Of a stretch of DNA of 7,279 nucleotides, positions 2,747 to 7,279 are shown in pieces. Under the pieces are notes generated by a model. That model did no database searches. It was not told the origin of the DNA and saw nothing but the letters and a program-made list of their open reading frames with translations. Both the position numbers and the translations under genes were made by a program. Numbering within the stretch: position 1 is the first letter of the stretch; each line of letters begins with the position of its first letter. The DNA is from a virus (Duplodnaviria; Heunggongvirae; Uroviricota; Caudoviricetes). The stretch is taken from the IMG/VR virus record IMGVR_UViG_2693429605_000008, one strand, 5' to 3'.

Positions 2747-2919
2747 TAGCGATAATTTTACTCATCATCCTTCACATCTGGCTCTGTAGACAGGGTGGTG
2801 ATCACTTCTGGAGTGAATCCAGATTTAACATCTCATTGCTGATGCTTGATATTGAGCATCTTGCGCGCGGTAAGGGGCTGCGTTGAGATAAGAGCCAGTC
2901 ATCACAAACACCAGGATTT

Positions 2920-2947
2920 AGCCTCGCATTCGCGGGGCTTTTTATTG
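2920..2947 (+). terminator. Rho-independent terminator about 175 nt downstream of Rz
   Basis: AGCCTCGC (2920-2927) pairs with GCGGGGCT (2932-2939): 8 bp including one G-U pair, with a 4-nt loop ATTC, followed by TTTTTATT. Confidence 0.6.
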
Positions 2948-2964
2948 CAACAAAGGTAAAGACG

Positions 2965-3252
2965 ATGGATGAAGAATATCGTAAAGACCTGCAATTGTGG
3001 TTTGGCCTGACGCATGCGTCGTTCTGCGTGATGCCGAGAGTATTCATGGAGGCTATGCCGCAAGAATGGCAAGAGAAGATGGCGCAGTTGCTTTTTGAGT
3101 ATGGCGACACGATCAAAACGGATGTCTGCGGAGTTCACAGCTGTTTCGTTACTGCCAAAGACGGCAACAACCGCTTTATGAGGATGCCAGAAGATATTCT
3201 GAACTATCGTCATCCCCGGCGTGAGTTCATCGAATCATTTCTGAAGAAGTAG
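2965..3252 (+). CDS. Hypothetical protein, 95 aa (accessory ORF A)
   Basis: Plausible coding composition. The overlapping minus-strand ORFs (2802-3116, 2902-3213) have low-complexity, Cys/His/Arg-rich translations and are less plausible. Only a weak SD (AAAGG) precedes the ATG. No family recognised. Confidence 0.5.
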   Translation: MDEEYRKDLQLWFGLTHASFCVMPRVFMEAMPQEWQEKMAQLLFEYGDTIKTDVCGVHSCFVTAKDGNNRFMRMPEDILNYRHPRREFIESFLKK

Positions 3253-3345
3253 CCATTACAAAGTCTATCTGCGGGGGGCTTGATAAAGGTGCTTTCACCT
3301 CGCTTAGCATGGTATGTTCTGACTACCAACTTTTTGGGAGGACAC

Positions 3346-3570
3346 ATGGAACTGATAAATGGACGGCCAGGCAGAGATTTTATAGTGGGAACATATACCT
3401 ACTCAGAAATTAAAGATCTTAACTTCATGGCTAAGGAAGAGAAAAGAGCTCGTGAAGAGCTAAAGCATCGGGGTTACGAATTGGCGTATATCAAGGCGGA
3501 CTCTGAATGTAACGGGATGTTTGTCAGGGCGTACCGGGTCTATACTGACAAAGCGCCATCTAATGTCTAA
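3346..3570 (+). CDS. Hypothetical protein, 74 aa (accessory ORF B)
   Basis: SD GGGAGG (3336-3341) lies 4 nt before ATG 3346. The ORF-track start at 3280 is a TTG and is disfavoured. Mixed-charge sequence MELINGRPGRDFIVGTYTYSEIKDLNFMAKEEKRAREELKHRGYELAYIKADSECNGMFVRAYRVYTDKAPSNV. No family recognised. Confidence 0.5.
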   Translation: MELINGRPGRDFIVGTYTYSEIKDLNFMAKEEKRAREELKHRGYELAYIKADSECNGMFVRAYRVYTDKAPSNV

Positions 3571-3636
3571 ATATACCTCGGGCGGTTTTTTACGTTCATT
3601 ACCGTACGCAATTACAGCAGGCATTCATTGAGTGCC

Positions 3637-3645
3637 TGTGATAAT
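3637..3645 (+). promoter_or_regulatory. Putative extended -10 promoter element (TGTGATAAT) upstream of ORF C
   Basis: TGnGATAAT sits in the AT-rich 135-bp spacer between ORF B and ORF C, about 60 nt before the ORF C start. No good -35 hexamer. Sequence-only prediction. Confidence 0.25.
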
Positions 3646-3705
3646 GATTTATCAACGTGCTTGCAAACGGTATTCTAGACCTCCAATTATCCTAAGGAGG
3701 TTTTT

Positions 3706-4110
3706 GTGGTTAAAAATTTAGAATACATGAAGGGGATGCTTGAGGTATTTTTGAAAGCGAAAACTCCCTTTATATCTACAAAAGACTTAGCTAATGCGGG
3801 GTACGATATCTGCTCGAATGAAGGGATGTTTCATTATCTACTTCTTATTGAGCAAGGTTATATCAGTAATAAAGATCTAATAACGGATGACATAACTAAA
3901 CTGGGCTACATGCGCCATTGTGGCCATATGCTAGATATGGGTACCGACGTGCGACTATCTGCGCAGGGACAAGAATTCGCCCAGGCATTAAATGAACCTA
4001 CGGTTTTTGAGAAATTAAAGTCAATGAGCGATGCCCCTTTGAGTACAATCAAAGATGTTGGGCTGGAGTTAACGAAGGCCTATTTAAAGAAGAAATTTGG
4101 CCTCGAGTAA
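3706..4110 (+). CDS. Hypothetical protein, 134 aa, with an N-terminal winged-helix-like region; possibly DUF2513-like (accessory ORF C)
   Basis: Strong SD AAGGAGG (3694-3700) lies 5 nt before GTG 3706. The gene is visibly AT-rich compared with its neighbours. The motif EGMFHYLLLIEQGYIS looks like a wHTH recognition helix. The DUF2513 resemblance is recall only. Confidence 0.65.
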   Translation: MVKNLEYMKGMLEVFLKAKTPFISTKDLANAGYDICSNEGMFHYLLLIEQGYISNKDLITDDITKLGYMRHCGHMLDMGTDVRLSAQGQEFAQALNEPTVFEKLKSMSDAPLSTIKDVGLELTKAYLKKKFGLE

Positions 4111-4322
4111 AATTTCTACCCTCACGAGTTAAGTTGTTTTGTGATGGTTATTCGCAATGAATATCTCTAGCCACTGGCATTTGCTGGTGGTTTTTTTATG
4201 CGCATCCCTCGCGCACCACAAAGGGAGTCTTTCAGTAGTGATTCTGAATATCAGTGTGATAAACGTATTTGACAATCATTATCATTTTTGGTGGGTCCTT
4301 TCCGGCGATCCGACAGGTTACG

Positions 4323-4334
4323 GGGCGGCGACCT
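4323..4334. other. cosN: the lambda-type 12-nt cohesive-end sequence GGGCGGCGACCT, i.e. the terminase nicking site
   Basis: Exact match to the lambda left cohesive end as I recall it, with lambda right-end-like GTTACG immediately upstream. Distance to the Nu1 ATG (4512) matches lambda (nt 1 to nt 191) to within 1 nt. Confidence 0.85.
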
Positions 4335-4370
4335 CGCGGGTTTTCGCTATTTATGAAAATTTTCCGGTTT

Positions 4371-4490
4371 AAGGCGTTTCCGTTCTTCTTCGCCGTAACC
4401 TAATGTTTTTATTTAAAACACCCCCAGAAAAGAAAGGAAACGACAGGTGCTGAAAACGGGCTTTTTGGCCTCTGTCGTTTCCTTTCTCTG
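4371..4490. promoter_or_regulatory. cosB: terminase small-subunit binding elements (R3, R2, R1) with an intervening AT-rich IHF-type site
   Basis: CGTTTCC at 4375-4381, inverted GGAAACG at 4436-4442 and CGTTTCC at 4476-4482, with the AT-rich stretch TAATGTTTTTATTTAAAA (4401-4418) between them. The layout matches lambda cosB from memory. Confidence 0.7.
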
Positions 4491-4511
4491 TTTTTGTCCG
4501 TGGAATGAACA

Positions 4512-5031
4512 ATGGAAGTCAACAAAAAGCAGCTGGCTGACATTTTCGGTGCGAGTATCCGTACCATTCAGAACTGGCAGGAACAGGGAATGCCCGTTCT
4601 GCGAGGCGGTGGCAAGGGTAATGAGGTGCTTTATGACTCTGCCGCCGTCATAAAATGGTATGCCGAAAGGGATGCTGAAATTGAGAACGAAAAGCTGCGC
4701 CGGGAAGTTGAAGAACTGCGGCAGGCCAGCGAGACAGATCTCCAGCCAGGGACTATTGAGTACGAACGCCATCGACTTACGCGTGCGCAGGCCGACGCAC
4801 AGGAGCTGAAAAATGCCAGAGACTCCGCTGAAGTGGTGGAAACCGCATTCTGTACTTTCGTGCTGTCGCGGATCGCAGGTGAAATTGCCAGTATTCTCGA
4901 CGGGATCCCCCTGTCGGTGCAGCGGCGTTTTCCGGAACTGGAAAACCGACATGTTGATTTCCTGAAACGGGATATCATCAAAGCCATGAACAAAGCAGCC
5001 GCGCTGGATGAACTGATACCGGGGTTGCTGA

Positions 5032-5057
<26 letters not shown>
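4512..5057 (+). CDS. nu1: Terminase small subunit (lambda gpNu1)
   Basis: 181 aa. MEVNKKQLADIFGASIRTIQNWQEQGMPVLRGGGKGNEVLYDSAAVIKWYAERD... matches lambda Nu1 almost residue for residue by recall. Its 3' end overlaps the A start by 26 nt, as in lambda. Confidence 0.97.

Positions 5058-7279
<2,222 letters not shown>

Follow-up and report, generated by a model that had tools for sequence, protein, structure and literature searches.

Two adjacent small genes between Rz and cos of a lambdoid prophage are probably independent cargo cassettes bordered by a conserved hairpin

Two small open reading frames (ORFs), here called ORF B and ORF C, lie side by side in the virus record IMGVR_UViG_2693429605_000008, a stretch of 7,279 nucleotides (nt) that we refer to as the window. 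Gene order and domain matches read along its full length identify the window as the late region of a lambdoid prophage. A reading of the sequence alone had proposed that the two genes form one accessory unit, such as a regulator/effector pair, a toxin-antitoxin module or a small defence system. Considering the related loci that we collected, B and C are probably unrelated, independently mobile single-gene late cargo cassettes that occupy adjacent slots, and not a two-component system. The feature most deserving follow-up is a hairpin that stands at the joints between the cassettes, of which the sequence-only reading saw only two promoter-like motifs. The elements of the region are as follows.

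2920-2949, + strand: terminator-like hairpin after Rz/orf50, AGCCTCGC-ATTC-GCGGGGCT then TTTTATTGCA
2965-3252, + strand: ORF A, 95 amino acids (aa), the first cargo gene in the gap, outside the coordinates of the earlier reading
3254-3288, + strand: junction hairpin 1 (decayed), CATTACAAAGTCTATCTGCGGGGGGCTTGATAAAG, which follows the ORF A stop codon immediately and holds TTGATA
3346-3570, + strand: ORF B, 74 aa, pI 7.8, with the Shine-Dalgarno sequence GGGAGG at 3336-3341, a phrog_6100 member
3575-3592, + strand: remnant of the ORF B cassette terminator, ACCTCGGGCGGTTTTTTA, its 5' arm lost in the window
3610-3646, + strand: junction hairpin 2, an intact copy, AATTACAGCAGGCATTCATTGAGTGCCTGTGATAATG, holding TGTGATAAT and forming the left edge of the ORF C cassette
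3679-3701, + strand: possible Shine-Dalgarno-sequestering hairpin, as read from the sequence, in which ACCTCC (3680-3685) pairs with GGAGGT (3696-3701) across AATTATCCTAA
3706-4110, + strand: ORF C, 134 aa, pI 5.9, assigned to a divergent DUF2513 subfamily and to phrog_585
4169-4200, + strand: intrinsic terminator at the right edge of the ORF C cassette, AGCCACTGGC-ATTT-GCTGGTGGTT then TTTTTAT

Loci with relatives of either protein were gathered from IMG/VR, GTDB genomes, metagenomes and GenBank phages, and were searched by tblastn with every protein of the window. In this census of fetched loci (cited below by L numbers), B and C co-occurred only where both were at least 99% identical to those of the window. 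The B-C block was present in 35 of 5,426 complete E. coli genomes, almost always at 100% identity, and from 3253 to 4160 the window matches both the E. coli O104:H4 2011C-3493 chromosome and 30-odd further complete E. coli genomes at 100% identity. Diverged homologues of either gene, by contrast, were always without the other. ORF C relatives lacking ORF B were found at 96% identity in Citrobacter, 86% in L043, 83% in Klebsiella, 66% in Pectobacterium, about 50% in several loci and 30% in Klebsiella phage ST846-OXA48phi9.2; the diverged relatives were preceded by small ORFs of unrelated kinds, by a DUF2560 gene or immediately by Rz. Likewise, ORF B relatives at 83% and 69% identity lacked ORF C, and downstream of those at 83% lay a 65-aa ORF and then a DUF6694 gene. 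A scan of genome contigs for related loci returned only two, one of which was spurious. The pairing of B and C is one recently spread block of DNA, and since no co-conservation was seen beyond this near-identical block, the comparative genomics that the sequence-only reading had called for speaks against a single unit. PADLOC gave no hit at E <= 1 for ORFs A, B and C and two neighbouring small ORFs, and NCBIfam and direct Pfam scans of the same ORFs returned nothing relevant.

The limits of homology differ from gene to gene. In loci where ORF C has unrelated neighbours, homology starts abruptly at 3610 and stops shortly past the terminator at 4169-4200, and the mobile unit therefore extends from about 3610 to 4200. 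This terminator was kept in L055, L056, L057, L061, L043 and L042, and the sequences diverge beyond it. The ORF B loci share homology from about 3257, where homology of the ORF B relatives begins at hairpin 1, to a terminator just past the stop codon, which was aligned in its intact form in L027 and L028 (CCGCC-TCCG-GGCGG then TTTTTT). Homology between the window and phage HF4s runs from 2880 to 3286, so that it covers ORF A and ends inside junction hairpin 1. The terminator-like hairpin at 2920-2949, with an 8-bp stem containing 6 G-C pairs, a T-run and CATCACAAAC preceding it at 2899, is the left edge of the cargo gap. The spacer between B and C, 135 nt long, holds the decayed terminator and a junction hairpin. 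As far as these limits can be read, the gap is made of three single-gene units, A, B and C, set end to end with joints at 3254-3288 and 3610-3646.

The junction hairpin is 35-41 nt long and consists of CAT(T/C)A-CA, a variable stem of 9-10 bp, a loop of 3-7 nt and GA-T(A/G)ATG. Twelve distinct seed copies from the first loci, which were picked with a folding-energy cut-off and aligned by MAFFT, fold at -10.8 to -19.5 kcal/mol. In the seeds, 96% of the positions are paired and 9 of 15 pairs carry compensatory changes, including that of the outer stem from CATTA/TAATG to CATCA/TGATG, while none of 500 shuffles reached the observed pairing and slid controls gave 32-47%. Following the seeds, a covariance model of the hairpin, denoted as R1, was built. 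The 44 distinct copies of alignment A10, whose pair counts are biased upward because the alignment was fitted to the model, have 97.2% of positions paired and compensatory changes in 12 of 15 pairs; none of 500 shuffles reached the observed value on any of five measures, and slid controls gave 35-50%. The MAFFT seed alignment and a sequence-only scan are free of this model-fitting bias, although the seeds were energy-selected. When IMG/VR was scanned by sequence only, for CATTACA and GATAATG separated by 21-31 nt, 28 of 106 unique matches (26%) folded at -12 kcal/mol or below, compared with 0.4% of shuffled flank-motif matches. Hairpin 2 of the window scored 50.0 bits with R1 (E = 1.3e-11) at a predicted folding energy of -17.2 kcal/mol, and hairpin 1 scored 25.0 bits (E = 5.6e-4) at -4.3 kcal/mol. 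All strong R1 hits were on the sense strand of the late genes. Owing to its frequent G-U pairs, the fold is strand-specific. The base of the hairpin and its CA/GA internal loop are conserved in sequence, and the upper stem is freely variable.

Of the 44 copies, 32 start 0-12 nt past a stop codon that closes an ORF of 40 or more codons on the same strand, compared with 7% of random positions and 5 of 44 copies when the opposite strand was considered. In an unfiltered R1 scan of two whole prophages, those of O104:H4 and Klebsiella phage ST846-OXA48phi9.2, each had two strong copies, and every hit lay in the lysis-packaging gap. The genes downstream of the hairpins encode DUF2513, ORF B family, DUF2560, GemA and DUF551 proteins, a terminase-associated HNH protein and DUF1441. 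The very same 37-nt variant is present, unannotated, in phi80, mEp390, Pectobacterium phage ZF40 and many Klebsiella phages, and Salmonella phage ST64B has a more diverged copy, also unannotated. About 13 further E. coli genomes match the window only in the 36 nt of hairpin 2, at 100% identity and with other cargo flanking it. The Cronobacter DUF2513 loci had no hairpin. Further copies were located as follows.

L003, 3603-3640 and 3915-3951: two junction hairpins
L014, 1078-1113, 1273-1309, 1498-1532 and 1854-1890: four junction hairpins
phi80 (L199), 2601-2637: junction hairpin 7 nt after the rha stop codon

In ST846-OXA48phi9.2 (L196:27797-27833), a nearly perfect palindrome lies 10 nt past the stop codon of the DUF2513 gene. 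It scored weakly with R1 on both strands (21.4 and 17.4 bits) and could represent a junction hairpin of symmetric form.

A literature search on boundary sequences and stem-loops in lambdoid phages found no description of the hairpin: a preprint on Pas small RNAs (10.64898/2026.05.13.724894) concerns small RNAs near the Q and holin genes and not this gap, and a paper on Sf6 deletions (PMC5630979) concerns the nin region. An Rfam cmscan of the whole window at E <= 1 found no hairpin family, giving only a chance match to mir-578 at 4428-4490. The junction hairpin is conserved and apparently undescribed. Among intercistronic or extragenic palindromes, the E. coli REP/BIME elements and the processing hairpins cut by RNase III between T7 genes are similar in that they are sense hairpins just past stop codons, with an internal loop, a conserved stem base and an upper stem with compensatory changes. 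The junction hairpin differs from them in having its own sequence, CATTA-CA...GA-TAATG, and a stem shorter than that of a typical RNase III substrate, and in being confined to one short region of temperate enterobacterial phages without an Rfam family. Two other assignments of the hairpin were rejected. It is not an intrinsic terminator, as it ends in GATAATG with no T-rich run following and is not called by the terminator scan, and it is not a -35/-10 pair, as the spacer between ATTACA and GATAAT is 22-23 nt and variable.

The letters TTGATA (3280-3285) and TGTGATAAT (3637-3645), which the sequence-only reading had taken for promoter-like elements, are indeed present, but they were not confirmed as promoters. 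A sigma-70 consensus scan called no promoter at 3280-3285 or 3637-3645, and the region contained 5 promoter-like sites against 3.8 +/- 2.1 in shuffles. The two motifs are the 3' arms of the two conserved junction hairpins, and neither has a usable -35 hexamer. Because both genes lie on the late strand and have no supported promoter of their own, B and C are most likely expressed within a Q-antiterminated late transcript that would read through the flanking terminators.

Both genes were found at the coordinates first given and behind strong Shine-Dalgarno sites, as had been stated: GGGAGG (3336-3341) ends 4 nt upstream of the ORF B ATG at 3346, and AAGGAGG (3694-3700) ends 5 nt upstream of the ORF C GTG at 3706. 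Purifying selection on both genes is indicated by pairwise dN/dS against homologues, which was 0.11-0.16 in ORF B and 0.08-0.20 in ORF C. Neither protein belongs to a characterised family, in line with the sequence-only reading, which could place neither in one. The profile and structure comparisons that had been suggested led for C to DUF2513 and a winged helix, and for B to phrog_6100 and to no significant match in the PDB.

ORF C matched phrog_585 with E = 3e-31. A direct Pfam scan gave no PF10711 (DUF2513) hit at E <= 0.1 for ORF C, and ORF C relatives of about 50% identity scored 15.8-19.3 bits against the same model, below its gathering score of 29.6 bits. A profile of close ORF C relatives retrieved 218 cluster representatives in 1.84 billion proteins, and 43 of 54 sampled relatives hit PF10711. 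A further profile search returned more than 100 proteins annotated as DUF2513/PF10711, with E down to 1.9e-44, and when the ORF C subfamily was aligned by hhalign with 23 bona fide DUF2513 proteins, the probability was 99.5%, with E = 1e-22 over 127 columns. The alignment with DUF2513 (PF10711)/phrog_585 is full-length and includes three C-terminal helices, and the two share F-H in helix 3, R-L-(T/S)-A-x-G-x-(D/E)-F following the wing and KKK at the C terminus, as well as a length of about 135 aa and a prophage position before the terminase genes; ORF C is unlike DUF2513 members in scoring under Pfam's reporting level. On the strength of these profile comparisons, we assign ORF C to a divergent DUF2513 subfamily that is missed by Pfam's model. 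YjcQ (PF09639) is a distant relative of DUF2513. The ORF C protein is already in databases as WP_000240372.1 and matched 3 of 50,697 phage records, and a full-text search for DUF2513 and PF10711 found no relevant paper in the library searched.

In the fold of ORF C, residues 1-85 form a winged helix, in which three helices are followed by a beta wing and which is superposable on solved domains, and residues 86-131 form three C-terminal helices. The winged-helix-like N-terminal half that had been proposed therefore stands, whereas the C-terminal extension is about 50 aa, shorter than the roughly 70 aa suggested. The structural neighbours of the model are MarR/PadR-like, and the ORF C profile found nothing below E = 0.15 among PDB sequences. 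The family is acidic, with a median pI of 5.2, and in ORF C the net charge is -2 on the recognition helix (helix 3) and -1 on the wing; the protein is therefore a poor fit to a classical operator-binding repressor. On the late strand, DUF2513 genes follow the lysis genes and precede at least five arrangements of packaging genes, namely Nu1/GpA, DUF1441/GpA, Terminase_2, HNH with Terminase_4 and a P22-like small terminase. A solitary DUF2513 gene was observed in Oceanobacter (L070:5001-5411), at a non-phage chromosomal site between DprA and Sua5/YciO/YrdC-family genes. In E. coli CT282 (L198:2958-4900), IS100 (istA/istB) is inserted at the equivalent of window position 3710, at the start of ORF C, and homology to ORF B and the hairpin is intact upstream of it.

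The candidate hairpin at 3679-3701 covers the AAGGAGG of ORF C, and its loop is 11 nt as read from the anti-Shine-Dalgarno pairing. An equivalent design precedes the ORF B homologue in L007 (~4975-4995; CCTCCAACTCATTTGGAGG). Leaders of the B type are similar to those of the C type (GGTAT..TCT.AC.TCCAA) whereas other cargo leaders do not share this likeness, and a conserved 95-nt leader common to every cargo type was looked for and not found. The pairing of ACCTCC with GGAGGT may serve in translational control.

ORF B matched phrog_6100 end to end (E = 1.1e-55), a family listed without function in PHROGs, and had just a handful of homologues in 5.8 billion proteins. As a protein query against the 50,697 phage records it gave no match. 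Its AlphaFold2 model (pLDDT 85.7) has a beta-hairpin, then a long helix and then a sheet of three strands, and this model had no significant PDB neighbour (best E = 0.74). ORF B is a small alpha/beta protein and a rare orphan that is already in PHROGs. Considering its purifying selection, it is therefore a real gene, despite having no PGAP annotation in O104:H4 2011C-3493, where the copy at L001:6094-6315 is a small gene missed in RefSeq. One further protein, P0017, is a 60-aa chimera in which the N-terminal 30 residues are Cro/YdaS-type helix-turn-helix-like (MNPAIKTAINIVGSQKKLGAACEVSQQAV) and the remainder is the final 30 residues of ORF B (YELAYIKADSECNGMFVRAYRVYTDKAPSNV). P0017 is a recombination joint within ORF B, in another element.

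Each of B and C carries a junction hairpin on its left and a terminator on its right, and recombines into other phages without the other. The 36-41 nt common to unrelated neighbours would provide the homology for exchange of cargo genes, and the breakpoints would therefore fall at the hairpins; a dedicated role of the hairpin in recombination at the DNA level is possible. The two products are probably dispensable late accessory proteins, each acting alone. Because of its acidic surface and its constant position before at least five unrelated packaging arrangements, ORF C would be neither a classical repressor nor a packaging-specific factor; our best guess, made with low confidence, is that it binds a protein or other ligand rather than an operator. 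The hairpin itself is most likely a sense-strand RNA structure whose base is recognised by a factor, and it would act in the intercistronic processing of late mRNA or in 3'-end protection. This role is suggested because the hairpin is on the sense strand, has G-U pairs, follows stop codons and combines a conserved base and CA/GA loop with a variable upper stem. Some points weigh against this explanation. The B-C block is intact at 100% identity wherever it is present, and a lineage-specific functional interaction is thus possible. A weak extended -10 promoter at 3637-3645 (TGTGATAAT), from which ORF C could be expressed in the prophage, is also possible. Moreover, the RNA-level role is argued from strand specificity and G-U pairs, the functions of both proteins are argued from context only, and the 44-copy pair counts carry the bias given above.

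Of the alternatives, it seems highly improbable that B and C are a single module of the regulator/effector, toxin-antitoxin-like or anti-phage kind, co-expressed from the prophage. In favour of a module are the adjacency of the two AT-rich genes on one strand, the block found unbroken at 100% identity in 35 E. coli genomes and the lack of a known function for either protein. However, the pair is not co-conserved past the single recent block, the 135-nt spacer contains a terminator remnant and a junction hairpin, PADLOC gave no hit, and ORF C relatives move as a lone gene with their own terminator. A greater probability, though still that of an unlikely explanation, is given to each gene being a classical moron transcribed in the lysogen from its own sigma-70 promoter, with GATAAT in the 3' arm as the -10 element, a TG upstream of it in the case of ORF C, and a role in lysogenic conversion or superinfection exclusion, as for lambda bor. 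In line with this, TGTGATAAT at 3637-3645 fits an extended -10 element and relatives keep TGCGATAAT or TGTAATAAT, ORF C has a terminator behind it, G+C is low and the site is a known moron location, that of lambda bor. Yet there is no -35 element, the scan shows neither a promoter nor an excess over shuffles, and the TG is absent from most hairpin copies. In addition, changes in the -10-like letters go together with changes in the 5' arm (CATCA with TGATG), a sign of pairing rather than of a working hexamer. The hairpin also stands before late genes, namely the packaging genes for HNH and DUF1441, and the phi80 copy follows rha without a downstream gene on that strand.

The remaining two alternatives concern ORF C. 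It could be a dimeric winged-helix repressor that autoregulates through the palindrome at 3611-3645 acting as duplex DNA, since it has a winged-helix fold with MarR/PadR-like neighbours and its start is preceded, at a distance of 60 nt, by an imperfect palindrome of 35 bp that moves with the gene. This is very improbable, as the hairpin family stands beside many unrelated genes without DUF2513 and the Cronobacter DUF2513 loci are without a hairpin. Furthermore, the inner stem varies with compensatory changes, the strand specificity seen in G-U pairs is unexpected of a duplex operator, and the protein and its family are acidic with a recognition helix of net charge -2. We also regard it as improbable that DUF2513 proteins, including ORF C, are accessory factors of packaging or head assembly. 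While such a function would explain the site before the terminase genes, and a position beside packaging genes recurs in many prophages, there are at least five unrelated packaging arrangements, which cover cos, HNH-cos and headful types. Most relatives of each phage type lack the gene, the ORF C DNA being present in 35 of 5,426 E. coli genomes and the protein matching only 3 of 50,697 phage records. The gene is also interrupted by IS100 in CT282 and exists as a solitary chromosomal copy in Oceanobacter.

The cassette explanation can be extended, tentatively and with more doubt than belief, to the whole gap as an organised cassette array whose slots are delimited by a dedicated hairpin recognised by a specific factor. 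The factor might be an RNase or a protein that binds RNA, by which the late mRNA is cut or stabilised gene by gene, or a structure-specific nuclease or recombinase that drives exchange. If so, phage cargo such as ORFs B and C would be shuffled in an integron-like way. Integron cassettes with attC sites are alike in being single-gene arrays of one orientation with imperfect palindromes between the genes, in the conserved arms and variable centre of these palindromes, and in having exchange breakpoints at them. They differ in that neither an integron integrase nor R/L box sequences are present here. The likeness is one of layout only, and ordinary homologous recombination over 36-41 shared bases can explain the exchange.

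A closer comparison is with morons. The Rz-cos interval is a known moron location, in which lambda carries bor, and the concept of morons as promoter-gene-terminator units is said to come from Juhala, Hendrix and colleagues. Like a moron, ORF C is a lone extra gene of low G+C with its own terminator, present or absent at the Rz-cos site. In contrast with bor, which is opposed to the late strand, ORFs B and C lie on it; furthermore, no promoter is supported here and the left boundary is a conserved hairpin.

As a gene pair, B and C carry little weight, being two hypothetical cargo genes that are already in databases. The phage family DUF2513 is widespread and uncharacterised, and its place just before the packaging genes is strikingly constant. 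The hairpin bears on why the mosaic joints of lambdoid phages fall where they do, as homology breaks on both sides of it, and the idea of a 'linker sequence' becomes testable in the well-studied carriers phi80, mEp390 and ST64B. The hairpin further suggests a signal in late mRNA that had gone unannotated.

The genes around the cargo gap, in order, are as follows.

First in the listed gene order, before the holin: DUF6645 protein
778-1071: P21-type holin
Between holin and lysozyme: DUF1327/YdfR protein
1446-1979: lysozyme
2279-2746: Rz, with Rz1 embedded
4512-5057: Nu1
5032-6957: terminase A, followed by W

The gap between Rz and Nu1 is about 1.7 kb long and contains ORFs A, B and C. With the P21-type holin, lysozyme and Rz/Rz1 on one side and the Nu1/A terminase on the other, the placement of the two genes in an accessory gap between lysis and cos/terminase was borne out, and so was their AT-richness. 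The G+C content was 41.4% over 3280-4110, compared with 51.4% over 1-2746 and 54.8% over 4512-7279, and the cargo genes had 40-44% against 51-55% in the flanks. ORF C had 40.0% over the whole gene and 38.3% in its first 120 nt, where about 38% had been counted by hand. The entire window is identical to IMG/VR contig 2695420373_000014.

At 4323-4334 on the + strand is GGGCGGCGACCT, preceded by ...CCGACAGGTTACG, which we take to be the cosN cohesive-end sequence by its match to the lambda ends. This site marks the end of the virion chromosome, and ORFs A-C are therefore at its extreme right end. The annotation of phi80 shows an analogous cos layout. A mosaic joint at cos was seen when 4160-4512 of the window was compared with the O104:H4 prophage (L001:6908-7259). 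Between this prophage and the window, ORFs A-C are 99-100% identical, whereas Nu1 is 52% and terminase A 67% identical; the cargo block and the packaging module therefore differ in history. A 71-aa ORF at 4157-4372 on the + strand, with a partial match to phrog_11159, crosses both the ORF C terminator (4169-4200) and cosN, and it is almost certainly not a gene. ORF A aligns only to positions 139-230 of the 233 positions of the phrog_3527 profile, and its homologue in HF4s is 114 aa long. ORF A appears to be either a truncated copy or a domain that stands alone here and forms the C-terminal part of longer proteins.

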